DNA from: Nemertoderma westbladi
Lineage: Eukaryota; Animalia; Xenacoelomorpha
Assembly: GCA_032718475.1 (NCBI GenBank)
Contig: JAUCBJ010006294.1
Coordinates: 1-61,028 of the forward strand
Reading direction: 5' to 3'
Length of the DNA stretch: 61,028 bases
The notes beneath the pieces were generated by a model. It was not told the origin of the DNA. It did not search any database and worked only from the letters and a program-made list of their open reading frames with translations. A program made the translations under genes and the position numbers. Positions 24,850-60,380 of this stretch are shown one piece after another. Position 1 is the stretch's first letter. The number at the start of each line of letters is the position of its first letter.

Positions 24850-25071
24850 CTAAACAAATTTATAAATAATAATGAACCAACTTTTCTTCGATTTCATACG
24901 TAGTACACGTCATATCTCCTGGAATATACCCTAATGAGATAATTTACCTCCCGCTTTCTCACTTGGTGAGTCAGAATTTGTATTCATGCTCTCAAACTTA
25001 AGTGTTAAAAATGATATGTCGTCGATAAATTCCAGTCGTACTAGCTGTGCCTCATACCATGCCAACCATTG

Positions 25072-25300
25072 GCTGTTACCATAGCAACCTGTGACTGTTA
25101 CCACACCAACCTGCCCCTGTTACCATATAAACATATGCCTGTTGTTGTTACCAAAGCAACATATGCCTGTTACCATAGCAACATATTCCTGTTACCATAG
25201 CAACATTTGCCTGCTGTTACCATAGCAACCTATGCATGTTACCATAGAAACATATGCATGTTACCATAGCAACCTGAACCTGTTATTATACAAACCTGTG
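25072..25300. repeat. Degenerate ~22-bp tandem array (9-10 units) with core GTTACCATAGCAAC
   Basis: Nine tgttacc-xxx-aac units between 25074 and 25273, five of them exact gttaccatagcaac. Abuts the donor at 25295. Confidence 0.85.
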
Positions 25301-25609
25301 CCTGGGTCTTTGTCTCCACTTCCTTCTGTATAGTACCGAAGTCCTTGCCGTACCGACGGAACGAGGTTATGAATTGCCGACGTTCCCCTTGTGTCCAGGG
25401 CTGGTTGTCAAGGTAACGGTAACAACGAAACGAATCGGTCGATGGCAGTGACGATAAGTCGTGTAGATGGATGTCCCACAAAAAGGATAGAGCCGGTAGG
25501 ACGTTACCTTTATATCTTTGAAGAGCGTGCAGAGAGAGTTCTAGATTACGGAAATGATTTTCCTTACCCTCTGGTAGTTGGCGGAAAGCGAGTTCGAAGT
25601 ATTTCGACA
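25296..25609 (-). CDS. TRERF1: TRERF1-like exon: ELM2 C-terminal half + SANT
   Basis: ttttag|TG (phase 1) ... CAG|GTTTG. LELSLHAL...AL..L and WTQGERRQFITSFRRYGKDFGTIQKEVETKTQAQ are ELM2-SANT signatures. Confidence 0.92.
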
Positions 25610-25684: not shown

Positions 25685-28600
25685 GGTAGTTCTACTTACA
25701 ACGTGGGTTAGGGGTCGGTCTACTACCGGTCGGGTAGTTCTACTTACAACGTGGGTTAGGGGTCGGTCTACTACCGGTCGGGTAGTTCTACTTATAACGT
25801 GGGTTAGGGGTCGGTCTACTACCGGTCGGGTAGTTCTACTGACAACGTGGGTTAGGGGTCGGTCTACTACCGGTCGGGTAGTTCTACTTACAACGTGGGT
25901 TAGAGGTCGGTCTACTACCGGTCGGGGTAGTTCTACTGACAACGTGGGTTAGGGGTCGGTCTACTACCGGTCGGGTAGTTCTACTTACAACGTGGGTTAG
26001 GGGTCGGTCTACTACCGGTCGGGTAGTTCTACTTACAACGTGGGTTAGGGGTCGGTCTACTACCGGTCGGGGTAGTTCTACTTACAACGTGGGTTAGGGG
26101 TCGGTCTACTACCGGTCGGGGTAGTTCTACTGACAACGTGGGTTAGAGGTCGGTCTACTACCGGTCGGGTAGTTCTACTTACAACGTGGGTTAGGGGTCG
26201 GTCTACTACCGGTCGGGTAGTTCTACTTACAACGTGGGTTGGGGTCGGTCTACTACCGGTCGGGTAGTTCTACTTACAACGTGGGTTAGGGGTCGGTCTA
26301 CTACCGGTCGGGTAGTTCTACTTACAACGTGGGTTGGGGTCGGTCTACTACCGGTCGGGTAGTTCTACTTACAACGTGGGTTAGGGGTCGGTCTACTACC
26401 GGTCGGGTAGTTCTACTTACAACGTGGGTTAGGGGTCGGTCTACTACCGGTCGGGTAGTTCTACTTACAACGTGGGTTAGGGGTCGGTCTACTACCGGTC
26501 GGGTAGTTCTACTTACAACGTGGGTTAGGGGTCGGTCTACTACCGGTCGGGTAGTTCTACTTACAACGTGGGTTAGGGGTCGGTCTACTACCGGTCGGGT
26601 AGTTCTACTTACAACGTGGGTTAGGGGTCGGTCTACTACCGGTCGGGTAGTTCTACTTACAACGTGGGTTAGGGGTCGGTCTACTACCGGTCGGGTAGTT
26701 CTACTTACAACGTGGGTTAGGGGTCGGTCTACTACCGGTCGGGTAGTTCTACTTACAACGTGGGTTAGGGGTCGGTCTACTACCGGTCGGGTAGTTCTAC
26801 TTACAACGTGGGTTAGGGGTCGGTCTACTACCGGTCGGGTAGTTCTACTTACAACGTGGGTTAGGGGTCGGTCTACTACCGGTCGGGTAGTTCTACTTAC
26901 AACGTGGGTTAGGGGTCGGTCTACTGCCGGTCGGGTAGTTCTACTTACAACGTGGGTTAGGGGTCGGTCTACTACCGGTCGGGTAGTTCTACTTACAACG
27001 TGGGTTAGGGGTCGGTCTACTACCGGTCGGGTAGTTCTACTTACAACGTGGGTTAGGGGTCGGTCTACTACCGGTCGGGGTAGTTCTACTTACAACGTGG
27101 GTTAGGGGTCGGTCTACTACAGGTCGGGTAGTTCTACTTACAACGTGGGTTAGGGGTCGGTCTACTACCGGTCGGGTAGTTCTACTTACAACGTGGGTTA
27201 GGGGTCGGTCTACTACCGGTCGGGGTAGTTCTACTTACAACGTGGGTTAGGGGTCGGTCTACTACCGGTCGGGGTAGTTCTACTGACAACGTGGGTTAGA
27301 GGTCGGTCTACTACCGGTCGGGTAGTTCTACTTACAACGTGGGTTAGGGGTCGGTCTACTACCGGTCGGGGTAGTTCTACTGACAACGTGGGTTAGGGGT
27401 CGGTCTACTACCGGTCGGGTAGTTCTACTTACAACGTGGGTTGGGGTCGGTCTACTACCGGTCGGGTAGTTCTACTTACAACGTGGGTTAGGGGTCGGTC
27501 TACTACCGGTCGGGTAGTTCTACTGACAACGTGGGTTAGAGGTCGGTCTACTACCGGTCGGGTAGTTCTACTTACAACGTGGGTTAGGGGTCGGTCTACT
27601 ACCGGTCGGGGTAGTTCTACTGACAACGTGGGTTAGGGGTCGGTCTACTACCGGTCGGGTAGTTCTACTTACAACGTGGGTTGGGGTCGGTCTACTACCG
27701 GTCGGGTAGTTCTACTTACAACGTGGGTTAGGGGTCGGTCTACTACCGGTCGGGTAGTTCTACTGACAACGTGGGTTAGGGGTCGGTCTACTACCGGTCG
27801 GGTAGTTCTACTTACAACGTGGGTTGGGGTCGGTCTACTACCGGTCGGGTAGTTCTACTTACAACGTGGGTTAGGGGTCGGTCTACTACCGGTCGGGTAG
27901 TTCTACTTACAACGTGGGTTAGGGGTCGGTCTACTACCGGTCGGGTAGTTCTACTTACAACGTGGGTTAGGGGTCGGTCTACTACCGGTCGGGGTAGTTC
28001 TACTGACAACGTGGGTTAGAGGTCGGTCTACTACCGGTCGGGTAGTTCTACTTACAACGTGGGTTAGGGGTCGGTCTACTACCGGTCGGGGTAGTTCTAC
28101 TGACAACGTGGGTTAGGGGTCGGTCTACTACCGGTCGGGTAGTTCTACTTACAACGTGGGTTGGGGTCGGTCTACTACCGGTCGGGTAGTTCTACTTACA
28201 ACGTGGGTTAGGGGTCGGTCTACTACCGGTCGGGTAGTTCTACTTACAACGTGGGTTAGGGGTCGGTCTACTACCGGTCGGGGTAGTTCTACTTACAACG
28301 TGGGTTAGGGGTCGGTCTACTACAGGTCGGGGTAGTTCTACTTACAACGTGGGTTAGGGGTCGGTCTACTACCGGTCGGGTAGTTCTACTTACAACGTGG
28401 GTTAGGGGTCGGTCTACTACCGGTCGGGGTAGTTCTACTTACAACGTGGGTTAGGGGTCGGTCTACTACAGGTCGGGGTAGTTCTACTTACAACGTGGGT
28501 TAGGGGTCGGTCTACTACCGGTCGGGTAGTTCTACTTACAACGTGGGTTAGGGGTCGGTCTACTACCGGTCGGGTAGGACGACTTACAACGTGGGTTAGG

Positions 28601-30225
28601 GGTCGGTCTACTACCGGTCGGGGTAGTTCTACTGACAACGTGGGTTAGAGGTCGGTCTACTACCGGTCGGGTAGGACGACTTACAACGTGGGTTAGGGGT
28701 CGGTCTACTACCGGTCGGGTAGGACGACTTACAACGTGGGTTAGGGGTCGGTCTACTACCGGTCGGGTAGGACGACTTACAACGTGGGTTAGGGGTCGGT
28801 CTACTACCGGTCGGGTAGTTCTACTTACAACGTGGGTTAGGGGTCGGTCTACTACCGGTCGGGTAGGACGACTTACAACGTGGGTTAGGGGTCGGTCTAC
28901 TACCGGTCGGGTAGTTCTACTTACAACGTGGGTTAGGGGTCGGTCTACTACCGGTCGGGTAGTTCTACTTACAACGTGGGTTAGGGGTCGGTCTACTACC
29001 GGTCGGGTAGTTCTACTTACAACGTGGGTTAGGGGTCGGTCTACTACCGGTCGGGTAGGACGACTTACAACGTGGGTTAGGGGTCGGTCTACTACCGGTC
29101 GGGGTAGTTCTACTGACAACGTGGGTTAGAGGTCGGTCTACTACCGGTCGGGTAGGACGACTTACAACGTGGGTTAGGGGTCGGTCTACTACCGGTCGGG
29201 TAGGACGACTTACAACGTGGGTTAGGGGTCGGTCTACTACCGGTCGGGTAGGACGACTTACAACGTGGGTTAGGGGTCGGTCTACTACCGGTCGGGTAGT
29301 TCTACTTACAACGTGGGTTAGGGGTCGGTCTACTACCGGTCGGGTAGGACGACTTACAACGTGGGTTAGGGGTCGGTCTACTACCGGTCGGGTAGTTCTA
29401 CTTACAACGTGGGTTAGGGGTCGGTCTACTACCGGTCGGGTAGTTCTACTTACAACGTGGGTTAGGGGTCGGTCTACTACCGGTCGGGTAGTTCTACTTA
29501 CAACGTGGGTTGGGGTCGGTCTACTACCGGTCGGGGTAGTTCTACTTACAACGTGGGTTAGGGGTCGGTCTACTACCGGTCGGGTAGTTCTACTGACAAC
29601 GTGGGTTAGGGGTCGGTCTACTACCGGTCGGGTAGTTCTACTTACAACGTGGGTTAGGGGTCGGTCTACTACCGGTCGGGTAGGACGACTTACAACGTGG
29701 GTTAGGGGTCGGTCTACTACCGGTCGGGTAGTTCTACTGACAACGTGGGTTAGGGGTCGGTCTACTACAGGTCGGGGTAGTTCTACTTACAACGTGGGTT
29801 AGGGGTCGGTCTACTACCGGTCGGGTAGGACGACTTACAACGTGGGTTAGGGGTCGGTCTACTACCGGTCGGGGTAGTTCTACTGACAACGTGGGTTAGA
29901 GGTCGGTCTACTACCGGTCGGGTAGGACGACTTACAACGTGGGTTAGGGGTCGGTCTACTACCGGTCGGGTAGGACGACTTACAACGTGGGTTAGGGGTC
30001 GGTCTACTACCGGTCGGGTAGGACGACTTACAACGTGGGTTAGGGGTCGGTCTACTACCGGTCGGGTAGTTCTACTTACAACGTGGGTTAGGGGTCGGTC
30101 TACTACCGGTCGGGTAGGACGACTTACAACGTGGGTTAGGGGTCGGTCTACTACCGGTCGGGTAGTTCTACTTACAACGTGGGTTAGGGGTCGGTCTACT
30201 ACCGGTCGGGTAGGACGACTTACAA
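25685..30225 (-). repeat. Tandem array, 48-bp unit x ~94, starting at the splice donor and filling the intron
   Basis: Minus-strand unit GTAAGT(CGTC/AGAA)CTACCCGACCGGTAGTAGACCGACCCCTAACCCACGTT. The first GTAAGT is the donor at 30223. Confidence 0.97.
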
Positions 30226-30481
30226 TTATCCTCTGGATTTAATACACCGGGGTTCCACATCAAAGTTTCGTATTCCGTAGATTCGGAGGCCCCATGGTTA
30301 CCATCTTCAGACAGCTCCCCTGGTTCCGAGGATTCCATCGGATCTTCCGATTCCAACACAGACCGCCCAGCACTGTCGACCCGGGATAGACACCTATCCG
30401 ACACTTCAGCCTGGAATGTCGGTCCCACGTTAATTTTGGGTTGAATTATTTCTTCGTCGGAAATACTTCCAGTGGAAGAAC
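30224..30481 (-). CDS. TRERF1: TRERF1-like exon: ELM2 N-terminal half
   Basis: tttctaag|GT ... AAT T|GTAAGT, phase 1-1. QPKINVGPTFQAEV and ETLMWNP are ELM2 motifs. Confidence 0.92.
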
Positions 30482-30937
30482 CTTAGAAACAAAAGTATAA
30501 CCACATCTTTAGAGATAAAATAAAATACTAGTGTGTTCACCATTCAGATAACAATAGGAATTATTAAAAGTATGTTGAAAAATTATGTAACAAATGAGGA
30601 TGCCCTCCAGAAAATTGTTTTCAAACATCCTTAACTTGTAAGCTTGGTTGTTTTTAAAGTTGTACGGCAACTTGATTTATCAGATAGGGAGAGGAGGCTT
30701 ACGATTTAATAAAAATTAGTTACTCTCCAAGGGAAATTCGACGCAAATAACGGCTGATTTCTCTAAAAATATGACAGTAACCTACAGGCCCTACTATTGA
30801 CTTAGTATATTGTTTTGGTTACAATAACGTGCCCCTGTAACATGGTCCTTTCCTTTAATTCATAAATTAGGGTTGCCTTGAGACGAGATATTAATTCGCC
30901 GAGATGGTATTCCCCCTGTCTATTCTACAGGAAGATG

Positions 30938-31435
30938 TTATTCTACATGACAGGTCAGAAAAATATTATTTTTTGCTATTTAATATTAGTTCATACTAGT
31001 TAACAATACAAAAACCTTGGTTGCGCATAAAACCCTAAAGCTTTTTTTTACAGTTTTGAATCTAATCACATGAAAGTTTTTATATATGATAGATCAAAGA
31101 TGGGGAAACATAAATACACAAATTCATGCTAAATTTTTAGGTTTGTTATAAATAGTATTAAATTTTATTAATACAAAATTTCATAATGTTATCTGATATT
31201 TTTTGCAGGGTGGCTATGTAGACACCCACATAAATTGTCAGACTAATTGTTCAAAAATTGTAGAAGTAGTAGGGTTTTGAAGTTGACAATTTCATAAAAA
31301 AAATATTTGGAGATAATCGACCTTTCATTATACATAGTAATAGTAATTTCAATAGGATTCCCTAAATGGAAATTGTTATAACTTGAAAACTAAAAGAGCT
31401 ATTAAATAGCGGTTTTTAGATTTGGAAACACCATT
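30938..31435. repeat. Dispersed repeat A, uninterrupted copy (intronic)
   Basis: Colinear with 1485-1510, 1797-2170 and 3653-3722. Confidence 0.8.
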
Positions 31436-31441
31436 AATTAA

Positions 31442-31558
31442 TCGTGCACCACCACCACCACCATCGTGCACCTGCGTGCACCACTGTCTGCACCAGTGTC
31501 TGTACCACTGTCTGCACCAGGTGTCTGCACCACTGTCTGCTCTGCACCACTGTCTGCT
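31442..31558. repeat. Low-complexity short tandem repeat (caccactgtctg-like)
   Basis: Several ~12-bp units plus an (acc)n run. Confidence 0.75.
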
Positions 31559-31750
31559 TAACGTCTACACCCAATGGAGGGAGATATTAGGATTAGCTTA
31601 AAGACAGCTCTTCGATATAAATGCAAAGCCGCAATGACACCTATAATAGCTGGAAGACAAAAAGGACAAAAAACAAATACCGACAGAAATAAAGTAAAGG
31701 CAACTAACTGTTTATTACATTACAAAATACATGGGGATACTAACGTTTAC

Positions 31751-31964
31751 TACCAAAACGGAAACGACCGGGACTTGCTGCAGCCCGCGGGGTCCCTGGA
31801 TCGGTTGATTGGCGGAAATGGTGGAGGTATAGGCCGGGTCCGTTCCGGGCGGGGCTCAGCATTGGTGGGGGCGTATAGGGGGGACTGGAGCCGGGGAACC
31901 GGGGCGAACGAAGGTGCGAGATATACCGAGGGAGGCAGGCTGAGTACGGCGTCGATGTATTCAC
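31751..31964 (-). CDS. TRERF1: TRERF1-like exon with conserved YxSHLRSP...PYTPPPMLSP.R.G.GL motif
   Basis: ctgtag|GTG, phase 0. RYISHLRSPRFPGSSPPYTPPPMLSPARNGPGLY. Two possible phase-1 donors (exon end 31754 or 31751). Confidence 0.9.
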
Positions 31965-32020
31965 CTACAGGACAAATGTTATTGAGATAAATATGGAAGA
32001 AATATATCCAAAATATTTAC

Positions 32021-35000
32021 CTTCGTTGGGTATATTTAGTGGCTCCGGTATGTGGCGTTCTCTAAACTTACTTCGTTGGGTATATTTAGTGGCTCCGGTA
32101 TGTGGCGTTCTCTAAACTTACTTCGTTGGGTATATTTAGTGGCTCCGGTATGTGGCGTTCTCTAAACTTACTTCGTTGGGTATATTTAGTGGCTCCGGTA
32201 TGTGGCGTTCTCTAAACTTACTTCGTTGGGTATATTTAGTGGCTCCGGTATGTGGCGTTCTCTAAACTTACTTCGTTGGGTATATTTAGTGGCTCCGGTA
32301 TGTGGCGTTCTCTAAACTTACTTCGTTGGGTATATTTAGTGGCTCCGGTATGTGGCGTTCTCTAAACTTACTTCGTTGGGTATATTTAGTGGCTCCGGTA
32401 TGTGGCGTTCTCTAAACTTACTTCGTTGGGTATATTTAGTGGCTCCGGTATGTGGCGTTCTCTAAACTTACTTCGTTGGGTATATTTCGTGGCTCCGGTA
32501 TGTGGCGTTCTCTACACTTACTTCGTTGGGTATATTTAGTGGCTCCGGTATGTGGCGTTCTCTAAACTTACTTCGTTGGGTATATTTAGTGGCTCCGGTA
32601 TGTGGCGTTCTCTAAACTTTCTTCGTTGGGGTTATTTAGTGGCTCCGGTATGTGGCGTTCTCTAAACTTACTTCGTTGGGTATATTTAGTGGCTCCGGTA
32701 TGTGGCGTTCTCTAAACTTACTTCGTTGGGTATATTTAGTGGCTCCGGTATGTGGCGTTCTCTAAACTTACTTCGTTGGGTATATTTAGTGGCTCCGGTA
32801 TGTGGCGTTCTCTAAACTTACTTCGTTGGGTATATTTAGTGGCTCCGGTATGTGGCGTTCTCTAAACTTACTTCGTTGGGTATATTTAGTGGCTCCGGTA
32901 TGTGGCGCTCTCTCAACTTACTTCATTGGGTATATTTAGTGGCTCCGGTATGTGGCGTTCTCTAAACTTACTTCGTTGGGTATATTTAGTGGCTCCGGTA
33001 TGTGGCGTTCGCTAAACTTACTTCGTTGGGTATATTTAGTGGCTCCGGTATGTGGCGTTCTCTAAACTTACTTCTTGGGTATATTTAGTGGCTCGGTATG
33101 TGGCGTTCTCTAAACTTACTTCGTTGGGTATATTTAGTGGCTCCGGTATGTGGCGTTCTCTAAACTTACTTCGTTGGGTATATTTAGTGGCTCCGGTATG
33201 TGGCGTTCTCTAAACTTACTTCGTTGGGTATATTTAGTGGCTCCGGTATGTGGCGTTCTCTAAACTTACTTCATTGGGTATATTTAGTGGCTCGGTATGT
33301 GGCGTTCTCTAAACTTACTTCGTTGGGTATATTTAGTGGCTCAGGTATGTGGCGTTCTCTAAACATACTTCGTTGGGGTTATTTAGTGGCTCCGGTATGT
33401 GGCATTCTCTAAACTTACTTCGTTAGGTATATTTAGTGGCTCCGGTATGTGGCGTTCTCTAAACTTACTTTGTTGGGTATATTTAGTGGCTCGGTATGTG
33501 GCGTTCTCTAAACTTACTTCGTTGGGTATATTTAGTGGCTCAGGTATGTGGCGTTCTCTAAACTTACTTCGTTGGGGTTATTTAGTGGCTCCGGTATGTG
33601 GCGTTCTCTAAACTTACTTCGTTGGGTATATTTAGTGGCTCCGGTATGTGGCATTCTCTAAACTTACTTCGTTAGGTATATTTAGTGGCTCCGGTATGTG
33701 GCGTTCTCTAAACTTACTTCGTTGGGTATATTTAGTGGCTCAGGTATGTGGCGTTCTCTAAACTTACTTCGTTGGGGTTATTTAGTGGCTCCGGTATGTG
33801 GCATTCTCTAAACTTACTTCGTTAGGTATATTTAGTGGCTCCGGTATGTGGCGTTCTCTAAACTTACTTCGTTGGGGTTATTTAGTGGCTCAGGTATGTG
33901 GCGTTCTCTAAACTTACTTCGTTGGGGTTATTTAGTGGCTCCGGTATGTGGCATTCTCTAAACTTACTTCGTTAGGTATATTTAGTGGCTCCGGTATGTG
34001 GCGTTCTCTAAACTTACTTCGTTGGGTATATTTAGTGGCTCCGGTATGTGGCGTTCTCTAAACTTACTTCGTTGGGGTTATTTAGTGGCTCAGGTATGTG
34101 GCGTTCTCTAAACTTACTTCGTTGGGGTTATTTAGTGGCTCCGGTATGTGGCATTCTCTAAACTTACTTCGTTAGGTATATTTAGTGGCTCCGGTATGTG
34201 GCGTTCTCTAAACTTACTTCGTTGGGGTTATTTAGTGGCTCCGGTATGTGGCGTTCTCTAAACTTACTTCGTTGGGGTTATTTAGTGGCTCCGGTATGTG
34301 GCGTTCTCTAAACTTACTTCGTTGGGTATATTTAGTGGCTCCGGTATGTGGCATTCTCTAAACTTACTTCGTTGGGTATATTTAGTGGCTCCGGTATGTG
34401 GCGTTCTCTAAACTTAGTCCTTTAGGTATATTTAGTGGCTCCGGTATGTGGCGCTCTCTAAACTTACTTCGTTGGGTATATTTAGTGGCTCCGGTATGTG
34501 GCGTTCTCTAAACTTACTTCGTTGGGTATATTTAGTGGCTCCGGTATGTGGCGTTCTCTAAACTTACTTCGTTAGGTATATTTAGTGGCTCCGGTATGTG
34601 GCGTTCTCTAAACTTACTTCGTTGGGGTTATTTAGTGGCTCAGGTATGTGGCGTTCTCTAAACTTACTTCGTAGGGTATATTTAGTGGCTCCGGTATGTG
34701 GCGTTCTCTAAACTTTCTTCGTTGGGTATATTTAGTGGCTCCGGTATGTGGCGTTCTCTAAACTTACTTCGTTGGGTATATTTAGTGGCTCCGGTATGTG
34801 GCGTTCTCTAACTTACTTCGTTAGGTATATTTAGTGGCTCCGGTATGTGGCGTTCTCTAAACTTACTTCGTTGGGGTTATTTAGTGGCTCCGGTATGTGG
34901 CATTCTCTAAACTTACTTCGTTAGGTATATTTAGTGGCTCCGGTATGTGGCGTTCTCTAAACTTACTTCGTTGGGGTTATTTAGTGGCTCCGGTATGTGG

Positions 35001-38000
35001 CATTCTCTAAACTTACTTCGTTAGGTATATTTAGTGGCTCCGGTATGTGGCGTTCTCTAAACTTACTTCGTTGGGGTTATTTAGTGGCTCAGGTATGTGG
35101 CGTTCTCTAAACTTACTTCGTTGGGGTTATTTAGTGGCTCCGGTATGTGGCATTCTCTAAACTTACTTCGTTAGGTATATTTAGTGGCTCCGGTATGTGG
35201 CGTTCTCTAAACTTACTTCGTTGGGTATATTTAGTGGCTCCGGTATGTGGCGTTCTCTAAACTTACTTCGTTGGGTATATTTAGTGGCTCCGGTATGTGG
35301 CGTTCTCTAAACTTACTTCGTTGGGGTTATTTAGTGGCTCCGGTATGTGGCGTTCTCTAAACTTACTTCGTTGGGTATATTTAGTGGCTCCGGTATGTGG
35401 CGTTCTCTAAACTTACTTCGTTGGGGTTATTTAGTGGCTCCGGTATGTGGCATTCTCTAAACTTACTTCGTTAGGTATATTTAGTGGCTCCGGTATGTGG
35501 CGTTCTCTAAACTTACTTCGTTGGGGTTATTTAGTGGCTCAGGTATGTGGCGTTCTCTAAACTTACTTCGTTGGGGTTATTTAGTGGCTCCGGTATGTGG
35601 CATTCTCTAAACTTACTTCGTTAGGTATATTTAGTGGCTCCGGTATGTGGCGTTCTCTAAACTTACTTCGTTGGGGTTATTTAGTGGCTCCGGTATGTGG
35701 CGTTCTCTAAACTTACTTCGTTGGGTATATTTCGTGGCTCCGGTATGTGGCGTTCTCTAAACTTACTTCGTTGGGTATATTTAGTGGCTCCGGTATGTGG
35801 CATTCTCTAAACTTACTTCGTTAGGTATATTTAGTGGCTCCGGTATGTGGCGTTCTCTAAACTTACTTCGTTGGGGTTATTTAGTGGCTCCGGTATGTGG
35901 CGTTCTCTAAACTTACTTCGTTGGGGTTATTTAGTGGCTCCGGTATGTGGCGTTCTCTAAACTTACTTCGTTGGGTATATTTAGTGGCTCCGGTATGTGG
36001 CATTCTCTAAACTTACTTCGTTGGGTATATTTAGTGGCTCCGGTATGTGGCGTTCTCTAAACTTAGTCCTTTAGGTATATTTAGTGGCTCCGGTATGTGG
36101 CGCTCTCTAAACTTACTTCGTTGGGTATATTTAGTGGCTCCGGTATGTGGCGTTCTCTAACTTACTTCGTTGGGTATATTTAGTGGCTCCGGTATGTGGC
36201 GTTCTCTAAACTTACTTCGTTGGGTATATTTAGTGGCTCCGGTATGTGGCTTTCTCTAAACTTACTTCGTTGGGTATATTTAGTGGCTCCGGTATGTGGC
36301 GCTCTCTCAACTTACTTCATTGGGTATATTTAGTGGCTCCGGTATGTGGCGTTCTCTAAACTTACTTCGTTGGGTATATTTAGTGGCTCCGGTATGTGGC
36401 GTTCTCTAAACTTACTTCGTTGGGTATATTTAGTGGCTCCGGTATGTGGCTTTCTCTAAACTTACTTCGTTGGGTATATTTAGTGGCTCCGGTATGTGGC
36501 GCTCTCTCAACTTACTTCGTTGGGTATATTTAGTGGCTCCGGTATGTGGCTTTCTCTAAACTTACTTCGTTGGGTATATTTAGTGGCTCCGGTATGTGGC
36601 GTTCTCTAAACTTACTTCGTTGGGTATATTTAGTGGCTCCGGTATGTGGCGTTCTCTAAACTTACTTCGTTGGGTATATTTAGTGGCTCCGGTATGTGGC
36701 GTTCTCTAAACTTAGTCCTTTAGGTATATTTAGTGGCTCCGGTATGTGGCGCTCTCTAAACTTACTTCGTTGGGTATATTTAGTGGCTCCGGTATGTGGC
36801 GTTCTCTAAACTTACTTCGTTGGGTATATTTAGTGGCTCCGGTATGTGGCGTTCTCTAAACTTACTTCGTTGGGTATATTTAGTGGCCCCGGTATGTGGC
36901 GTTCTCTAAACTTACTTCGTTGGGTATATTTAGTGGCTCGGTATGTGGCGTTCTCTAAACTTACTTCGTTGGGTATATTTAGTGGCTCCGGTATGTGGCG
37001 TTCTCTAAACTTACTTCATTGGGTATATTTAGTGGCTCCGGTATGTGGCGCTCTCTAAACTTACTTCGTTGGGTATATTTAGTGGCTCCGGTATGTGGCG
37101 TTCTCTAAACTTACTTCGTTGGGTATATTTAGTGGCTCCGGTATGTGGCGTTCTCTAAACTTACTTCGTTGGGTATATTTAGTGGCTCCGGTATGTGGCG
37201 TTCTCTAAACTTACTTCGTTGGGTATATTTAGTGGCTCCGGTATGTGGCGTTCTCTAAACTTACTTCGTTGGGTATATTTAGTGGCTCCGGTATGTGGCG
37301 TTCTCTAAACTTACTTCGTTGGGTATATTTAGTGGCTCCGGTATGTGGCGTTCTCTAATCTTACTTCGTTGGGTATATTTAGTGGCTCCGGTATGTGGCG
37401 CTCTCTCAACTTACTTCATTGGGTATATTTAGTGGCTCCGGTATGTGGCGTTCTCTAAACTTACTTCGTTGGGTATATTTAGTGGCTCCGGTATGTGGCG
37501 TTCTCTAAACTTACTTCGTTGGGTATATTTAGTGGCTCCGGTATGTGGCGTTCTCTAAACTTACTTCGTTGGGTATATTTAGTGGCTCCGGTATGTGGCG
37601 TTCTCTAATCTTACTTCGTTGGGTATATTTAGTGGCTCCGGTATGAGGCGTTCTCTAAACTTACTTCGTTAGGTATATTTAGTGGCTCCGGTATGTGGCG
37701 TTCTCTAACTTACTTCGTTGGGTATATTTAGTGGCTCCGGTATGTGGCGTTCTCTAAACTTACTTCGTTGGGTATATTTAGTGGCTCCGGTATGTGGCGC
37801 TCTCTCAACTTACTTCATTGGGTATATTTAGTGGCTCCGGTATGTGGCGTTCTCTAAACTTACTTCGTTGGGTATATTTAGTGGCTCCGGTATGTGGCTT
37901 TCTCTAAACTTACTTCGTTGGGTATATTTAGTGGCTCCGGTATGTGGCGCTCTCTCAACTTACTTCATTGGGTATATTTAGTGGCTCCGGTATGTGGCGT

Positions 38001-41000
38001 TCTCTAAACTTACTTCGTTGGGTATATTTAGTGGCTCCGGTATGTGGCGTTCTCTAAACTTACTTCGTTGGGTATATTTAGTGGCTCCGGTATGTGGCGT
38101 TCTCTAAACTTACTTCGTTGGGTATATTTAGTGGCTCCGGTATGTGGCGTTCTCTAAACTTACTTCGTTGGGTATATTTAGTGGCTCCGGTATGTGGCGT
38201 TCTCTAAACTTACTTCGTTGGGTATATTTAGTGGCTCCGGTATGTGGCTTTCTCTAAACTTACTTCGTTGGGTATATTTAGTGGCTCCGGTATGTGGCGT
38301 TCTCTAAACTTACTTCGTTGGGTATATTTAGTGGCTCCGGTATGTAGCGTTCTCTAAACTTACTTCGTTGGGTATATTTAGTGGCTCCGGTATGTGGCGT
38401 TCTCTAAACTTACTTCGTTGGGTATATTTAGTGGCTCCGGTATGTGGCGTTCTCTAATCTTACTTCGTTGGGTATATTTAGTGGCTCCGGTATGTGGCGT
38501 TCTCTAACTTACTTCGTTGGGTATATTTAGTGGCTCCGGTATGTGGCGTTCTCTAAACTTACTTCGTTGGGTATATTTAGTGGCTCCGGTATGTGGCGTT
38601 CTCTAAACTTACTTCGTTGGGTATATTTAGTGGCTCCGGTATGTGGCGTTCTCTAACTTACTTCGTTGGGTATATTTAGTGGCTCCGGTATGTGGCGTTC
38701 TCTAAACTTACTTCGTTGGGTATATTTAGTGGCTCCGGTATGTGGCGTTCTCTAAACTTACTTCGTTGGGTATATTTAGTGGCTCCGGTATGTGGCGTTC
38801 TCTAAACTTACTTCGTTGGGTATATTTAGTGGCTCCGGTATGTGGCGTTCTCTAACTTACTTCGTTGGGTATATTTAGAAGCTCCGGTATGTGGCGTTCT
38901 CTAAACTTACTTCGTTGGGTATATTTAGTGGCTCCGGTATGTGGCGTTCTCTAACTTACTTCGTTGGGTATATTTAGTGGCTCCGGTATGTGGCGTTCTC
39001 TAAACTTACTTCGTTGGGTATATTTAGTGGCTCCGGTATGTGGCGTTCTCTAACTTACTTCGTTGGGTATATTTAGTGGCTCCGGTATGTGGCGTTCTCT
39101 AAACTTACTTCGTTGGGTATATTTAGTGGCTCCGGTATGTGGCGTTCTCTAAACTTACTTCGTTGGGTATATTTAGTGGCTCCGGTATGTGGCGTTCTCT
39201 AAACTTACTTCGTTGGGTATATTTAGTGGCTCCGGTATGTGGCGTTCTCTAAACTTACTTCGTTGGGTATATTTAGTGGCTCCGGTATGTGGCGTTCTCT
39301 AAACTTACTTCGTTGGGTATATTTAGTGGCTCCGGTATGTGGCGTTCTCTAACTTACTTCGTTGGGTATATTTAGAAGCTCCGGTATGTAGCGTTCTCTA
39401 AACTTACTTCGTTGGGTATATTTAGTGGCTCCGGTATGTGGCGTTCTCTAAACTTACTTCGTTGGGTATATTTAGTGGCTCCGGTATGTGGCGTTCTCTA
39501 ACTTACTTCGTTGGGTATATTTAGAAGCTCCGGTATGTAGCGTTCTCTAAACTTACTTCGTTGGGTATATTTAGTGGCTCCGGTATGTGGCGTTCTCTAA
39601 CTTACTTCGTTGGGTATATTTAGAAGCTCCGGTATGTAGCGTTCTCTAAACTTACTTCGTTGGGTATATTTAGTGGCTCCGGTATGTGGCGTTCTCTAAA
39701 CTTACTTCGTTGGGTATATTTAGTGGCTCCGGTATGTGGCGTTCTCTCAACTTACTTCGTTGGGTATATTTAGTGGCTCCGGTATGTGGCGTTCTCTAAA
39801 CTTACTTCGTTGGGTATATTTAGTGGCTCCGGTATGTGGCGTTCTCTAAACTTACTTCGTTGGGTATATTTAGTGGCTCCGGTATGTGGCGTTCTCTAAC
39901 TTACTTCGTTGGGTATATTTAGTGGCTCCGGTATGTGGCGTTCTCTAAACTTACTTCGTTGGGTATATTTAGTGGCTCCGGTATGTGGCGTTCTCTAAAC
40001 TTACTTCGTTGGGTATATTTAGTGGCTCCGGTATGTGGCGTTCTCTAAACTTACTTCGTTGGGTATATTTAGTGGCTCCGGTATGTGGCGTTCTCTAAAC
40101 TTACTTCGTTGGGTATATTTAGTGGCTCCGGTATGTGGCGTTCTCTAAACTTACTTCGTTGGGTATATTTAGTGGCTCCGGTATGTGGCGTTCTCTAAAC
40201 TTACTTCGTTGGGTATATTTAGTGGCTCCGGTATGTAGCGTTCTCTAAACTTACTTCGTTGGGTATATTTAGTGGCTCCGGTATGTGGCGTTCTCTAAAC
40301 TTACTTCGTTGGGTATATTTAGTGGCTCCGGTATGTGGCGTTCTCTAATCTTACTTCGTTGGGTATATTTAGTGGCTCCGGTATGTGGCGTTCTCTAACT
40401 TACTTCGTTGGGTATATTTAGTGGCTCCGGTATGTGGCGTTCTCTAAACTTACTTCGTTGGGTATATTTAGTGGCTCCGGTATGTGGCGTTCTCTAAACT
40501 TACTTCGTTGGGTATATTTAGTGGCTCCGGTATGTGGCGTTCTCTAACTTACTTCGTTGGGTATATTTAGTGGCTCCGGTATGTGGCGTTCTCTAAACTT
40601 ACTTCGTTGGGTATATTTAGTGGCTCCGGTATGTGGCGTTCTCTAAACTTACTTCGTTGGGTATATTTAGTGGCTCCGGTATGTGGCGTTCTCTAAACTT
40701 ACTTCGTTGGGTATATTTAGTGGCTCCGGTATGTGGCGTTCTCTAACTTACTTCGTTGGGTATATTTAGAGGCTCCGGTATGTGGCGTTCTCTAAACTTA
40801 CTTCGTTGGGTATATTTAGTGGCTCCGGTATGTGGCGTTCTCTAACTTACTTCGTTGGGTATATTTAGTGGCTCCGGTATGTGGCGTTCTCTAAACTTAC
40901 TTCGTTGGGTATATTTAGTGGCTCCGGTATGTGGCGTTCTCTAACTTACTTCGTTGGGTATATTTAGTGGCTCCGGTATGTGGCGTTCTCTAAACTTACT

Positions 41001-44000
41001 TCGTTGGGTATATTTAGTGGCTCCGGTATGTGGCGTTCTCTAAACTTACTTCGTTGGGTATATTTAGTGGCTCCGGTATGTGGCGTTCTCTAAACTTACT
41101 TCGTTGGGTATATTTAGTGGCTCCGGTATGTGGCGTTCTCTAAACTTACTTCGTTGGGTATATTTAGTGGCTCCGGTATGTGGCGTTCTCTAAACTTACT
41201 TCGTTGGGTATATTTAGTGGCTCCGGTATGTGGCGTTCTCTAACTTACTTCGTTGGGTATATTTAGAAGCTCCGGTATGTAGCGTTCTCTAAACTTACTT
41301 CGTTGGGTATATTTAGTGGCTCCGGTATGTGGCGTTCTCTAAACTTACTTCGTTGGGTATATTTAGTGGCTCCGGTATGTGGCGTTCTCTAACTTACTTC
41401 GTTGGGTATATTTAGAAGCTCCGGTATGTAGCGTTCTCTAAACTTACTTCGTTGGGTATATTTAGTGGCTCCGGTATGTGGCGTTCTCTAACTTACTTCG
41501 TTGGGTATATTTAGAAGCTCCGGTATGTAGCGTTCTCTAAACTTACTTCGTTGGGTATATTTAGTGGCTCCGGTATGTGGCGTTCTCTAAACTTACTTCG
41601 TTGGGTATATTTAGTGGCTCCGGTATGTGGCGTTCTCTAAACTTACTTCGTTGGGTATATTTAGTGGCTCCGGTATGTGGCGTTCTCTAAACTTACTTCG
41701 TTGGGTATATTTAGTGGCTCCGGTATGTGGCGTTCTCTAAACTTACTTCGTTGGGTATATTTAGTGGCTCCGGTATGTGGCGTTCTCTAACTTACTTCGT
41801 TGGGTATATTTAGTGGCTCCGGTATGTGGCGTTCTCTAAACTTACTTCGTTGGGTATATTTAGTGGCTCCGGTATGTGGCGTTCTCTAAACTTACTTCGT
41901 TGGGTATATTTAGTGGCTCCGGTATGTGGCGTTCTCTAAACTTACTTCGTTGGGTATATTTAGTGGCTCCGGTATGTGGCGTTCTCTAAACTTACTTCGT
42001 TGGGTATATTTAGTGGCTCCGGTATGTGGCGTTCTCTAAACTTACTTCGTTGGGTATATTTAGTGGCTCCGGTATGTGGCGTTCTCTAAACTTACTTCGT
42101 TGGGTATATTTAGTGGCTCCGGTATGTGGCGTTCTCTAAACTTACTTCGTTAGGTATATTTAGTGGCTCCGGTATGTGGCGTTCTCTAAACTTACTTCGT
42201 TGGGTATATTTAGTGGCTCCGGTATGTGGCGTTCTCTAAACTTACTTCGTTGGGTATATTTAGTGGCTCCGGTATGTGGCGTTCTCTAACTTACTTCGTT
42301 GGGTATATTTAGTGGCTCCGGTATGTGGCGTTCTCTAAACTTAATTCGGTGTGTATATTTAGTGGCTCCGGTATGTGGCGTTCTCTAAACTTACTTCGTT
42401 GGGTATATTTAGTGGCTCCGGTATGTGGCGTTCTCTAAACTTACTTCATTGGGTATATTTAGTGGCTCCGGTATGTGGCGTTCTCTAAACTTACTTCGTT
42501 GGGTATATTTAGTGGCTCCGGTATGTGGCGTTCTCTAAACTTACTTCGTTGGGTATATTTAGTGGCTCCGGTATGTGGCGTTCTCTAAACTTACTTCGTT
42601 AGGTATATTTCGTGGCTCCGGTATGTGGCGCTCTCTAAACTTACTTCGTTGGGTATATTTAGTGGCTCCGGTATGTGGCGTTCTCTAAACTTACTTCGTT
42701 GGGTATATTTAGTGGCTCCGGTATGTGGCGTTCTCTAAACTTACTTCATTGGGTATATTTAGTGGCTCCGGTATGTGGCTTTCTCTAAACTTACTTCATT
42801 GGGTATATTTAGTGGCTCCGGTATGTGGCGTTCTCTAAACTTACTTCGTTGGGTATATTTAGTGGCTCCGGTATGTGGCGTTCTCTAAACTTACTTCGTT
42901 GGGTATATTTAGTGGCTCCGGTATGTGGCGTTCTCTAAACTTACTTCGTTGGGTATATTTAGTGGCTCCGGTATGTGGCGTTCTCTAAACTTACTTCGAT
43001 GGGTATATTTAGTGGCTCCGGTATGTGGCGTACTCTAAACTTACTTCGTTGGGTATATTTAGTGGCCCCGGTATGTGACGTTCTCTAAACTTACTTCGTT
43101 AGGTATATTTCGTGGCTCCGGTATGTGGCGTTCTCTAAACTTACTTCGATGGGTATATTTAGTGGCTCCGGTATGTGGCGTACTCTAAACTTACTTCGTT
43201 GGGTATATCTAGTGGCTCCGGTATGTGGCGTTCTCTAAACTTACTTCGTTGGGTATATTTAGTGGCTCCGGTATGTGGCGTTCTCTAAACTTACTTCGTT
43301 GGGTATATTTAGTGGCTCCGGTATGTGGCGTTCTCTAAACTTACTTCGTTGGGTATATTTAGTGGCTCCGGTATGTGGCGTACTCTAAACTTACTTCGTT
43401 GGGTATATCTAGTGGCTCCGGTATGTGGCGTACTCTAAACTTACTTCGTTGGGTATATCTAGTGGCTCCGGTATGTGGCGTACTCTAAACTTACTTCGTT
43501 GGGTATATCTAGTGGCTCCGGTATGTGGCGTTCTCTAAACTTACTTCGTTGGGTATATTTAGTGGCTCCGGTATGTGGCGTTCTCTAAACTTACTTCGTT
43601 AGGTATATTTCGTGGCTCCGGTATGTGGCGTTCTCTAAACTTACTTCGATGGGTATATTTAGTGGCTCCGGTATGTGGCGTACTCTAAACTTACTTCGTT
43701 GGGTATATCTAGTGGCTCCGGTATGTGGCGTTCTCTAAACTTACTTCGTTGGGTATATTTAGTGGCCCCGGTATGTGACGTTCTCTAAACTTACTTCGTT
43801 AGGTATATTTCGTGGCTCCGGTATGTGGCGTTCTCTAAACTTACTTCGTTGGGTATATTTAGTGGCTCCGGTATGTGGCGTTCTCTAAACTTACTCCGTT
43901 GGTATATTTAGTGGCTCCGGTATGTGGTGTTCTCTAAACTTACTTCGTTGGGTATATTTAGTGGCTCCGGTATGTGGTGTTCTCTAAACTTACTTCGTTG

Positions 44001-44533
44001 GGTATATTTAGTGGCTCGGTATGTGGCGTTCTCTAAACTTACTTCGTTGGGTATATTTAGTGGCTCCGGTATGTGGCGTTCTCTAAACTTACTTCGTTGG
44101 GTATATTTAGTGGCTCCGGTATGTGGCGTTCTCTAAACTTACTTCGTTGGGTATATTTAGTGGCTCCGGTATGTGGTGTTCTCTAAACTTACTTCGTTGG
44201 GTATATTTAGTGGCTCCGGTATGTGGTGTTCTCTAAACTTACTTCGTTGGGTATATTTAGTGGCTCGGTATGTGGCGTTCTCTAAACTTACTTCATTGGG
44301 TATATTTAGTGGCTCCGGTATGTGGCGTTCTCTCAACTTACTTCGTTGGGTATATTTAGTGGCTCCGGTATGTGGCGTTCTCTCAACTTACTTCGTTGGG
44401 TATATTTAGTGGCTCCGGTATGTGGCGTTCTCTAAACTTACTTCGTTGGGTATATTTAGTGGCTCCGGTATGTGGCGTTCTCTAAACTTACTTCGTTGGG
44501 TATATTTAGTGGCTCCGGTATGTGGCGTTCTCT
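32021..44533 (-). repeat. Tandem array, 50-bp unit x ~250 (12.5 kb): 42 nt of exon + GTAAGTTT
   Basis: Minus-strand unit AGAGAACGCCACATACCGGAGCCACTAAATATACCCAACGAA|GTAAGTTT. The first unit is the 3' end of the coding exon. Confidence 0.98.
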
Positions 44534-44698
44534 CCGACCAATCGGTTTCGTTTGAGGATCGAACCGCAGGAAGACGTCGTCCTCGCCGTCTTCGTCTACA
44601 GTCTCAACGTCAACCTCTCCGACCGAGGAGTTCCGACTGCTCCTATTAGGATATCCTGTCCGGATTCCCGTGTCAATGACCAGAGTGGCGGGAGTATC
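44492..44698 (-). CDS. TRERF1: TRERF1-like exon ending in the RHxPEPLxIP motif
   Basis: ttttctccacag|GAT ... GAA|GTAAGT, 207 nt, phase 0-0. RRERHIPEPLNIPNE resembles TRERF1 RHRPEPLFIP. Confidence 0.88.
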
Positions 44699-44987
44699 CT
44701 GTGGAGAAAACGAGAGAAACAGATTAGTGAACACTTGGTTACACCTGAATAGTCTGGATAATAACTCCATCTGCGATCCTGATACACATCGATTGGACGC
44801 ATATTCCATCCGGGCCCTCTATCCTCGTCCAGGATCCGGGCACACTGTCCGGGAACCGTGCCACTGTCCGGGAACTGGGCACGGCACATCGTCCTGACAT
44901 TTACTCCACCCGGGCAGAGCCACGCATTTCCGTATGTTTGTAACACATATATATGTGTGAAATCAGCTTAGATCAACAATAACTTAC

Positions 44988-45377
44988 AGGCAGACAATCG
45001 CCGGAACTTGAGGAGTCGGGAGTGATATCCTTTTCCTGTACCGCGTCGCTAAACTGCACCTTGCGACTGGTAGTAGACGCGCTAGTCTCCCCGTTCAACT
45101 GCAACGGCGGAGGCGGCTGAACGCGACTAGCCAATGAGGAGGGCTTATCGTCTTGCTGTAGCTCCACCTGGTTGAGATCCAACTCTAGCATGGAGTTGGC
45201 CTGAAGTATAGAGTTGTTGGAGCAGCCGTCAGTGAACTTAGGTACCGGGGGGAACCGGAATACAGTACCGGGAGCGGGGGCTGAGGGTTTGGATGACTTG
45301 GCTGGGGGAGTCGTTGGTTGCTTAGAGTTACGGTACCCCGCACCGGTAGGGAACTTAAAGACGTTGGCGTGCTCAAC
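44988..45377 (-). CDS. TRERF1: TRERF1-like exon (low-complexity region)
   Basis: cccgcag|GTT ... CCT|GTAAGT, 390 nt open frame, phase 0-0 (VEHANVFKF...SSSGDCLP). Confidence 0.8.
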
Positions 45378-45503: not shown

Positions 45504-47517
45504 ACTCATTAATATAGGGTGGACCTATTACTACATGGTGGACTCATTACTGCATGGTGGACCCATTACTGCATGGCGGACATATTACTGCATGGTGGAC
45601 TCATTACTGCATGGCGGACCTATTACTGCAGGGTGGACTCATTACTGAATAGTGGACCCATTACTGAATGGTGGACTCATTACTGAATAGTGGACCCATT
45701 ACTGCATGGTGGACACATTACTGCATGGTGGACTCATTACTGCATGGTGGGCCCATTACTGCATGGTGGAACCATTACTGCATGGTGGACTCATTACTGA
45801 ATAGTGGACCCATTACTGCATGGTTGACCCATTACTGCATGGTGCACCCATTACTGCATGGCGGACCTATTACTACATGGTGGACTCATTACTGAATAGT
45901 GGACCCATTACTGCATGGTGGACACATTACTGCATGATAGACTCATTACTGCATGGTGGGCCCATTACTGCATGGTGGACCCATTACTGCATGGCGGACC
46001 AACTACTGCATGGTGGACTCATTACTGAATAGTGGACCCATTACTGCATGGTGGACACATTACTGCATGATAGACTCATTACTGCATGGTGGGCCCATTA
46101 CTGCATGGTGGACCCATTACTGCATGGCGGACCAACTACTGCATGATGAACTCATTACTGCATGGTGGACTCATTATTGTGGACCCATTACTGCATGGTA
46201 GACACATTACTGCATGATGGATTCATTACTGCATGGTGGGCCCATTACTGCATGGTGGACCCATTACTGCATGGCGGACCTATTACTGCATGGTGGACCC
46301 ATTACTGCATGGTGGACTCGTTACTGAATAGTGGACCCATTACTGCATGGTGGACCCATTATTGCATGGCGGACTCATTACTGAATAGTGGACCCATTAC
46401 TGAATGGTGGACTCATTACTGAATAGTGGACACATTACTGCATGGTGGACCCATTACTGCATGGTGGACCCATTGCTGCATGGTGGACTCATTATTATGG
46501 ACCCATTACTGCATGGTGGACACATTACTGCATGATGGACACATTACTACATGGTGGACTCATTATTGTGGACCCATTACTGCATGGTGGACACATTACT
46601 GCATGATGGACTCATTACTGCATGGTGGGCCCATTACTGCATGGTGGACCCATTACTGCATGGCGGACTCATTACTGCATGGTGGACTCATTACTGCATG
46701 GTGGACCCATTACTGCATGCTGGACTCATTAATATATGGTGGACTCATTACTGCATGGAGGATTCATTACTGCATGGCGGACTCATTACTATATGGTGGA
46801 CCCATTACTGCATGGTGGACCCATTACTGCATGGCGGACCTATTACTGCATGGTGGACTCATTACTGCATGGTGGACTCATTATTGTGGACCCATTACTG
46901 CATGGTGGACACATTACTGCATGATGGACTCATTCCTGAATGGTGGGCCCATTACTGCATGGTGGACTCATTACTGCATGGCGGACCTATTACTGCATGG
47001 TGGACTCATTACTGCATGGTGGATACATTATTGCATGGTGGACTCATCACTATATTGTGGACCCATTACTACATGGCGGACTCACTACTGCATGGCGGAC
47101 TCATTACTGCATGGTGGATACATTACTGCATGGCGGACTCATTACTGCATGGTGGATACATTACTGCATGGTGGACTCATTATTATATGGTGGACCCATT
47201 ACTGCATGGTGGACCCATTACTGCATGGTGGATTCATTACTATAGGGTGGACCCATCACAGCATGGTGGACCCATTGCTGCATGATGGACCCATTACTGC
47301 ATGGTGGACCCATTACTGCATGGTGGACCCGTTATTGCATGAAGGACTCATTACTGCATGGCGGACCCATTACTGCAAGGCGGACTCATTACTATATGGT
47401 GGACTCATTACTGCATGGCGGACCCATTACTGCAAGGCGGACTCATTACTATATGGTGGACTCATTACTATATGGTGGACTCATTACTGCATGGCGGACT
47501 CATTATTGCATGGTGGA
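45504..47517. repeat. Intronic minisatellite, 19-bp unit x ~105, degenerate
   Basis: Unit ggacccattactgcatggt; the 19-aa periodicity of the spurious ORFs agrees. Confidence 0.95.
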
Positions 47518-48075: not shown

Positions 48076-49122
48076 CTTTAAATTAGCCAATAGAGTTGGA
48101 CTTCTGACGTGGTCGGAATGTGAGTAAACTAGGGATCCGTCGTCAAGAATATTCGTCTCATTAAACTCCTCGTAGTCTGATATCGGAGCGGGAATCGTCG
48201 TTCTACCTGTGTGCGAGGCTCGATAGGGCAGCTGATTGGTTGAGGGTTGGGAGGTTCTGTCGCCGAAAGGGAGCTGATTGGTTGAGGGCTGGGAGGTTCT
48301 GACACTGAAAGGTAGCTGATTGGTTGATGGCAGGGAGGTTCTTTCACTGAAAGATAGCTGATTAGTTGATGGCTGTGAGGTTATGTCTCCGAAAGGTAGC
48401 TGATTGGTTGAGGGCTGGGAGGTTCTGACACTGAAAGGTAGATGATTGGTTGAAGGCTGGGAGGTTCTGACACTGAAAGGTAGCTGATTGGTTGATGGAT
48501 GGGATTCTCTGTCACTGAAAGGTAGCTGATTGGTTGATGGCAGGGAGGTTCTGTCACTGAAAGATAGCTGATTAGTTGATGGCTGTGAGGTTATGTCTCC
48601 GAAAGGTAGCTGATTGGTTGAGGGCTGAGAAGTTATGTCACCGAAAGGTAGCTGATTGGTTGAGGGCTGGGAGGATCGGTCACTGAAAGGTAGCTGTTTG
48701 GTTGAAGGCTGGGAGATTCTGTCACTGAAAGGTAGATGATTGGTTGAAGGCTGGGAGGATCTGTCACTGAAAGGTAGCTGATTGGTTGAGGGCTGGTAGA
48801 TTCTGTCGGGGAAGACAGTTAATGTGCCATCGGGGCGAGGACCAGCTGCTGGGCGACTTACATCCCCTGCCCGTTGAATTGAGTCATCCATTAGCAGCGC
48901 GGTGTGGTTGTGGTGAGGCACTCGGGGACCGGTTGGATTGGGGCGGATCTGGGACGACCCGACTTGCAGTTGGTCGGCTACCAAGTGGGTTGTTGTCATT
49001 AACAGCGAGTCTGCTGATGGCGGAAAGGGCCACGGAGTAGGCTGCTTTGATAGGGGGACAGAAGGGGAAACAGGTGTTACTGGGCTGGTCTGAATCACAC
49101 CCAGTTCACAGTGTGACGTCAC
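48076..49122 (-). CDS. TRERF1: TRERF1-like large exon (349 codons) containing a 14-aa tandem repeat
   Basis: ttgcctag|GTG ... AAG|GTTGG, 1047 nt open frame, phase 0-0. Confidence 0.78.
48229..48810 (-). repeat. Coding tandem repeat, 42 bp / 14 aa (SQPSTNQLPFSDRT) x ~13-14
   Basis: Visible in the translation of ORF 47989..49122; the frame is preserved throughout. Confidence 0.9.
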
Positions 49123-60193: not shown

Positions 60194-60380
60194 CTGATTC
60201 CCTTGTTCGGAGACCCTCTCGCACCCGGAGTATAGACCCACCCGGGACAGCCTGTCGTACCCCCCATGGAGTCGCATGTGACCGTTGAGGGCGGGTAGGC
60301 TGGGGAAGCTCCGATCGCAGACGGGACACCGAGTGATGCCGTCGTCCGGGAAACCGTCCACCGGGTACTTTAGTAAAAGC
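60194..60380 (-). CDS. TRERF1: TRERF1-like exon with C2H2 zinc finger (upstream exons lie outside the window)
   Basis: ttctgcag|G (phase 2) ... CAG|GTGCGT. CPVCDRSFPSLPALNGHMRLHGG matches the TRERF1/ZNF541 finger CxxCxxxFxxLPALNGHMRxHGG. Confidence 0.9.

Follow-up and report, generated by a model that had tools for sequence, protein, structure and literature searches.

The intron between exons E and F of a gene of the TRERF1/MIDEAS family consists almost wholly of a minisatellite whose first unit lies across the exon-intron boundary, and the first of its reiterated donors is the one used in the spliced transcript that we found. In our opinion this array has quite probably grown, by slippage and unequal exchange, out of the exon end and its donor, and is tolerated as the most upstream donor is committed first. 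This reading builds on the anatomy of the array, its copy number, the in-frame junction with a single unit, the stop ahead of every later donor, block duplications and the neutral spectrum of distinct mutations, all of them observed directly. The window below means the whole stretch of DNA that was analysed (61,028 nt); the gene lies on its minus strand.

Anatomy of the array

The minisatellite occupies positions 32021-44533, where TRF reports a period of 50, 250.9 copies and 96% matches. Optimal segmentation divides it into 251 units, namely 221 of 50 nt, 28 of 49 nt, one of 48 nt and a final one of 43 nt. The initial annotation had described about 250 copies of the last 14 codons of an exon together with a donor, and both counts bear this out. 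Read on the minus strand, the unit of about 50 nt comprises 42 coding nt for RERHIPEPLNIPNE followed by 8 intronic nt, GTAAGTTT. Exon E (44492-44698, 207 nt, phase 0-0) is delimited by the joints and record positions of a contig of data set X3 and by translation. Its last 42 nt (44533-44492), which encode RERHIPEPLNIPNE, belong to the first repeat unit; this unit (44533-44484) spans the exon-intron boundary at 44492/44491 and supplies the authentic donor GAA/GTAAGTTT (44484-44491), the one used in the X3 contig. Upstream lies exon D (44988-45377, 390 nt), joined to exon E in X3 at 44697/44987.

The E/F intron (31965-44491) is 12,527 nt long and contains 239 GTAAGT by the segmentation count; the GT is kept in 244 of the 250 full units and lost in six. 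There are 48 distinct unit types, and 120 of the 251 units are identical to the first unit, i.e. to the coding copy. The array makes up 99.6% of the intron. What is left is a unique tail of 56 nt (GTAAAT...CTGTAG, 31965-32020), whose start is spanned by contigs of data sets X1 and X2 and whose length is that given for non-repeat sequence in the initial annotation. Outside the array a single 20-mer match was recorded, at 5816, with up to 4 errors allowed.

Reading through the first donor yields EVSLENATYRSH and then a TAA ahead of donor 2. Because this stop precedes donor 2, every later donor carries a premature TAA, as had been claimed from the sequence beforehand. Transcripts from later donors would be recognizable by GAAGTAAGTTTAGAG and, further on, GAA/GTGAAT.

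Copy number

The array is no assembly artefact, because read-word depth in X2, a DNA run, fits the assembled copy number. Four array contigs of X2 with depths of 3080-3423 correspond to 20.8-21.8x per assembled copy, when contig depth is divided by the occurrences of the contig's 31-mers in the window; two contigs from the single-copy flanks have 20.9 and 24.8x. A third flanking contig (13.7x) differs by two substitutions and a gap of 19 nt, and we take it to represent a single haplotype. X2 possibly derives from the source individual, and the match of depths checks the assembly, not the population. The agreement also contradicts an array of only a few units, an outcome that the initial annotation had allowed for. 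In X1 the unit is likewise present in hundreds of copies: the array-to-flank depth ratio is 474 there and 507-601 in X2, figures too rough to show a difference in length, as summed read-word depth gives no exact copy number. X1 departs from the window at several flanking sites. X4 has a single-copy depth too low for use.

That the length of the array was nevertheless produced by assembly is a virtually negligible alternative. No contig spans the array and long reads are not among the data, which would leave room for it; against it stand the X2 word depth, equal to the assembled copy number within about 15%, the similar array-to-flank ratio of X1, and the arrangement of the 48 unit types in ordered blocks. 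We also considered an array-free allele, suggested by X2 sequence that comes loose at 44491 and continues into the 56-nt tail, and rejected it, since this end fits a contig of the 3´ end of the array.

The host gene

Judged by its predicted protein, the host gene is an ELM2-SANT scaffold of the TRERF1/MIDEAS family. Exon F (31745-31964, 220 nt; X3 joint 30478/31742) encodes SHLRSP and YTPPPMLSP and aligns with YQSHLRSP...YTPPPILSP of MIDEAS (PDB 9r4i, E=1.9e-4). Exon G (30224-30481), at whose position 30224 the X3 piece ends, holds the start of an ELM2 domain (Pfam PF01448, above cut-off). Exon H (25296-25609) holds the ELM2 end and a SANT domain; PF00249 scores 22.8 bits there (cut-off 24.4), and its PDB matches are two, both MIDEAS (6z2j and 9r4i, E about 1e-6). 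MIDEAS and a sturgeon TRERF1 are the named best matches of the host protein. The family assignment of the initial annotation is upheld by the Pfam ELM2 domain, the MIDEAS structures and the homologue named TRERF1. An ORF with a C2H2 domain match (60182-60577) lies on the same strand as the gene, without an RNA link to it. Exon E gave no PDB match at E<=10, and word-indexed homologue searches with exons H and F found nothing.

A HMMER search with exon F alone returned eight matches. Five of them were compared; three with multiple stretches (P0001, P0002 and P0004) were left out. The five include one protein named TRERF1, from sturgeon, and one from an annelid. P[DE]PL stands 13-21 residues ahead of LRSP in four of the five homologues compared (22 residues in the host gene), and the fifth starts downstream of this point. 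Because P[DE]PL was found before LRSP in these four, the repeated codons include a conserved motif, and the succession P[DE]PL...LRSP...YTPPP announced by the initial annotation was recovered in the same four. According to PMC12647621, the MiDAC scaffolds TRERF1, MIDEAS, ZNF541 and SAEG-1 have in common with the host gene an ELM2-SANT module preceded by LRSP and YTPPP.LSP. The corresponding region of MIDEAS is described there as an auto-inhibitory loop over HDAC1 with its covering strand, and the repeated PEPL motif of the host gene sits upstream of the MIDEAS construct solved (PMC12647621).

Splicing of the array intron

The transcript comes from X3, a data set on record as 'DNA?'. We infer its RNA nature from exon-only coverage and from the skipping of GT-AG introns: a contig of 1486 nt (depth 139.8) contains exons only, skips the introns at 44697/44987 and 30478/31742, and depth is zero on unique intron sequence. 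Record positions 618-825 of the contig correspond to 44697-44490 and position 825 corresponds to 31963 as well; what appears as a loose end at 44490 is in fact where exon F begins. Position 44492 (record 823) is followed directly by 31964 (record 824), which means that exactly one unit is retained, the first donor is used and the junction PNE/VNT is in frame. First-donor use was observed in a single spliced transcript, from one RNA-like run. This is the phase-0 junction on which the initial annotation had staked its interpretation in advance.

The second unit (44446-44481) has zero depth in X3, and the depths in the bins of the last unit (97.9 and 32.8) are exactly the share of the one contig. 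A contig shows the dominant form only and drops rare variants, and leakage to other donors is not measurable from it. X3 departs from the window at two sites, 45342 and 31869. The SNP at 31869 is common to X3 and to an X1 contig reaching 30 nt into the last unit, which suggests, indirectly, that the X3 allele carries the array.

The initial annotation had the spliceosome forced to choose one of about 250 donors. This was overstated, for in such arrays the published rule is that the first donor is used, as described for F7 (PMC1557585). A normal-sized exon would presumably be formed only from the nearest few donors. RNA structure was tried as a cause of first-donor use and rejected: the predicted accessibility of donors 1 and 2 is equal (0.45).

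Further donor repeats and the question of masking

A second donor minisatellite starts at the donor of exon G (25685-30225, minus strand; 95 units of 48 nt by TRF and unit count). Its donors are 79 GTAAGT, 15 GTCAGT and one ATAAGT, and it fills the G/H intron (4,614 nt) but for 75 nt. Donor 2 of this array would, by computation, give an in-frame, stop-free insertion of 16 residues. X3 depth in the bin 30180-30243 is 43.7, exactly that of one contig ending at 30224; no X3 records were seen on 30180-30223 beyond the contig that leaves at 30224, the G-H joint itself lying outside the stretch compared. The G/H array is a partial control for masking by nonsense-mediated decay (NMD) in the E/F array.

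Such masking is central to an alternative reading, in which later donors are used substantially, their products are destroyed by NMD, and the array acts as a dial of poison donors on the amount of the MiDAC scaffold. All later donors carry the TAA with three exon junctions downstream, and contigs of steady-state RNA cannot reveal what has been degraded. There are precedents as well: donor 2 of the ABCA7 repeat is used and stop-carrying isoforms rise with cycloheximide (PMC5954066), and 6-16 and CBS are cited in PMC1557585 as using two extra donors. However, unit 2 is not covered by any X3 contig, X3 gives no sign either of use of the stop-free second donor in the G/H array, and donor-2 use in ABCA7 is reported as about 2% and independent of VNTR length (PMC5954066). 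We consider a dial of this kind unlikely, and prefer commitment of the first donor with a small leak.

A third repeat, decayed, with about 11 copies of 22 nt (25045-25304, minus strand, TRF), overlaps the predicted donor of exon H. The 22-mer at the H junction agrees at 16-17 of 22 positions with the six best-matching stretches of this repeat, a comparison made without a chance control, and the H/I intron likely has a donor-anchored array too. Among the six introns examined, two clear cases (E/F and G/H) and one likely case (H/I) may mean that donor-anchored arrays are more frequent than random placement gives, which would tell against the preferred reading. In the window as a whole eight arrays cover 30,645 of 61,028 nt, most of them away from junctions. 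No tRNA genes were found in the window.

The 3´ end of the array

The last unit ends in GAAG, followed by GTAAATAT, a detail that the initial annotation had missed. The array is closed by a donor AAG/GTAAAT at 32021/32020 that is one base out of frame, and contigs of both X1 and X2 span the spot without difference. Because of this last donor, complete collapse of the array would likely break the gene: with a single unit left, the computed outcome is a shifted frame or, when the tail stays in the transcript, a stop. The frame could, again by computation, be restored through a cryptic CAG that lies 25 nt inside exon F.

The first 8 nt of the tail match 6 of the 8 nt of GTAAGTTT, in a register chosen after looking; matches of 6/8 or better occur at 46 of 6073 positions (0.8%) of the non-array intron sequence of the gene. 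The tail may be an ancestral intron of 56 nt, the unit then being 42 exon nt plus the first 8 nt of this intron and the last copy carrying one G more. It may also be explained by a deletion that joined unrelated intron sequence, or be a decayed boundary copy. In X6 and X7, from other organisms, no record reached 80% likeness over the compared stretch, which is no proof of absence.

The juxtaposed AG/GT at 32021/32020 gives a zero-length exon and permits a different route of splicing to be imagined. In a first step, the first donor would be joined to the AAG at 32022-32021, regenerating GAA/GTAAAT; in a second, the 56-nt tail would be removed, leaving the same mRNA. The reading frame would be kept, and the junction would not differ from the one observed. 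The tail is by itself a complete GT-AG mini-intron, its donor has the best U1 match counted (9/11 vs 8/11), and the F/G intron also uses an AAG acceptor. A strong polypyrimidine tract is expected before the AG of a recursive (ratchet) splice site. The terminal AAG is preceded by a poor one, 8 of 17 pyrimidines (three of them T), whereas the six acceptors of the gene have 10-15 of 17. Further, the context AACGAAG recurs in most units, and among the X3 contigs there is none in which exon E continues into the tail; one would not expect to meet such an intermediate in a poly(A) library, though. Removal in two steps is accordingly a highly improbable alternative to direct joining of the first donor to exon F. 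The same low standing belongs to the full scenario, in which repeated copying of the adjoining exon end enlarged a whole ancestral 56-nt intron about 220-fold, and the shift by one base created the AG/GT that locks the array in and permits its two-step removal. If it were true, a recursive splice site would have been built by a minisatellite.

Evolution of the array

Runs of 17 and of 12 units are repeated within the array, 38 units apart (units 59/97 and 77/115). Variants recurring in blocks are what unequal exchange is expected to produce. Blocks of shared variants inside the array, together with the terminal donor GTAAAT, give a picture of concerted turnover within and a divergent boundary.

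Distinct mutations in the array look neutral. In the 42 coding-derived nt, 7 of 26 distinct substitutions are synonymous, where 22-27% are expected (p 0.64-1.0). In the unit, 3 of 33 types fall in the GT (p 0.14) and 7 of 33 in the donor 9-mer (p 0.65). None of these values is significant. CpG decay is not significant either (4/6 vs 4/16 sites, p 0.14). When variants are weighted by copies, synonymous ones are over-amplified (39% vs 24% expected of variant copies, P=0.04 in a one-sided, post hoc test that is one of several, treats 25 events with indels left out and the TA>AC pair counted once, and uses copies that are not independent). This unexplained excess runs against the neutral picture and is a lead only.

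It had been proposed that conversion or unequal crossover could exchange sequence between the satellite and the conserved protein motif, with the identity of the coding copy and the array consensus as a sign of it. The identity itself holds, with 120 of 251 units equal to the coding copy, and the consensus is also found in units at either end of the array. A young array copied from the coding copy would, however, look alike, and exchange found no support. The coding copy shows no difference from the window in X3 (42/42 nt) or in X2 (first 30 nt covered); none of the array-specific variants C36T, A6G, C39T, G18T and A24T occurs in it over these lengths. The synonymous share of distinct mutations is as expected under neutrality, and deletions that shift the frame have become widespread within the array (G18 is missing from six units). 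The copy-weighted excess of synonymous variants remains a weak hint in favor of exchange, with the reservations given for that test. In our estimate, exchange between array and coding copy at a rate sufficient to shape the motif is very unlikely.

Comparison with known systems

The kind of repeat is already known, and the E/F array is confirmed as a very large further case. In IVS7 of the human F7 gene, which carries a 37-bp VNTR, the donors are identical but splicing takes only the one furthest upstream, and mutagenesis demonstrated scanning there (Borensztajn et al. 2006, PMC1557585); 6-16, CBS IVS13, LMNB2 and PDGF intron 4 are listed there in the same class. This class and the E/F array are alike in that the first unit lies across the boundary, identical donors follow and the most upstream one is used (PMC1557585). 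They differ in size, since 5-26 units are given for the class and 251 were counted here, and in composition, each F7 unit having 4 exonic bases as opposed to 42. Scanning, demonstrated in F7 (PMC1557585), is presumed for the E/F array.

The VNTR in intron 18 of human ABCA7 reaches 10,678 bp or about 427 units (De Roeck et al. 2018, PMC5954066). As described there, it also begins at the donor of an exon, is comparable in size, reiterates the donor, each unit starting with the donor GT, and leads to a premature stop when donor 2 is used. Its 25-bp unit is intronic, whereas 42 of the 50 nt of our unit are coding, and VNTR length there is what causes the following exon to be skipped in frame (PMC5954066). 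In our gene, by contrast, loss of exon F with its 220 nt would disrupt the frame; exon E (207 nt) is the only one that could be left out without this effect.

In amphioxus, 'mirage' minisatellites were reported in Adh3, the globins BflGb6 and BflGb9, troponin C and PGBD5, with splicing staying normal (PMC3087553, PMC3902484). According to these reports they resemble the E/F array as tandem copies of an exon edge in an invertebrate, with long exonic parts, normal splicing, concerted evolution and an odd boundary unit, and several occur per genome. The BflGb6 mirage has 3-6 units, compared to 251 here (PMC3087553). In contrast to mirages, the E/F intron is 99.6% array, and a second intron of the host gene is filled likewise. 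PMC2812944 and PMC10078293 offer general context. By titles and abstract starts, in a coverage that most subscription papers fall outside, we found no published report of this locus; at the same level, nothing relevant was met on recursive splicing with tandem repeats or on VNTR donors with NMD and long reads.

Conclusions

We suggest the following course of events. A tandem duplication of 42 exon nt and 8 intron nt would have occurred across the junction, possibly starting from an ancestral intron of 56 nt. The array would then have grown by slippage and unequal exchange in DNA rich in minisatellites. Donor choice is presumably first-come, as in F7, and a small leak to donor 2, by analogy with about 2% in ABCA7, would be cleared by nonsense-mediated decay. 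The array itself is probably without function, in a region that is half minisatellite. Taken together, we regard it as a likely harmless, if large, instance of a type of repeat already met in human and lancelet genes.

A new mechanism would be at hand only if the recursive route, or skipping of exon E dependent on array length, is shown. As it stands, the locus is suited to measuring the leak per donor, because one gene combines an NMD-sensitive array (E/F) with a donor 2 that escapes NMD (G/H). Nature has also set up here an extreme trial of how the first donor is selected: in the transcript found, 238 additional GTAAGT donors, most of them in an identical 42-nt upstream context, are bypassed, and so is a donor that matches better and stands just 56 nt before the acceptor. 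The rule known from F7, ABCA7 and mirages is hereby extended to an essential chromatin scaffold gene of another animal, in which two introns are nearly all donor repeats.

Further repeats of the TRERF1-like gene

A second splice-donor minisatellite, consisting of 95 copies of a 48-nt unit (25685-30225, minus strand), starts at the donor of exon G and occupies 98% of the G/H intron. If the second donor of this array were used, the transcript would stay in frame and no stop would be introduced. Another minisatellite of the gene is coding. It lies within the large exon that ends at 48076, comprises 13.8 copies of a 42-nt unit (48230-48807, minus strand) and encodes repeats of approximately 14 residues, for example QLPFSDRTSQPSTN. 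Judged from the record positions, the contig of the RNA-like run X3 stops within it.

Other repeats of the gene lie in introns. The minisatellite of the C/D intron (19 nt x 106; 45518-47517, minus strand) is clear of both splice sites, with 140 nt between its end and the acceptor. The D/E intron carries 2.8 copies of a 19-nt repeat (44827-44882), and one unit is absent at 44843 in one contig of the DNA run X2, which is a small length polymorphism. The F/G intron contains high-copy dispersed repeats (30692-31587), whose summed depth in the DNA runs reaches up to several hundred thousand; similar fragments seem to be present also near 2100-2300 and 3600-3800.

Other elements of the contig

Two minisatellites of high identity, 71 nt x 25 (5977-7762) and 31 nt x 18 (56196-56760), have no recognised exon boundary at any of their ends. 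A 59-nt minisatellite (14656-24496), situated downstream of the predicted stop codon, harbors an inserted element of about 1.2 kb (22694-23874). This element carries terminal inverted repeats (TAGGGATGCGACAGAGCT), is apparently flanked by an 8-bp duplication of its target (CTAAGAAC) and is presumably hAT-like. Finally, an intronless, stop-free frame of 594 codons (51063-52844, plus strand) is nested antisense in one of the upstream introns of the TRERF1-like gene. It matches Pfam LRR_8 with E=3e-45, and its leucine-rich-repeat product appears similar to LRRC40.
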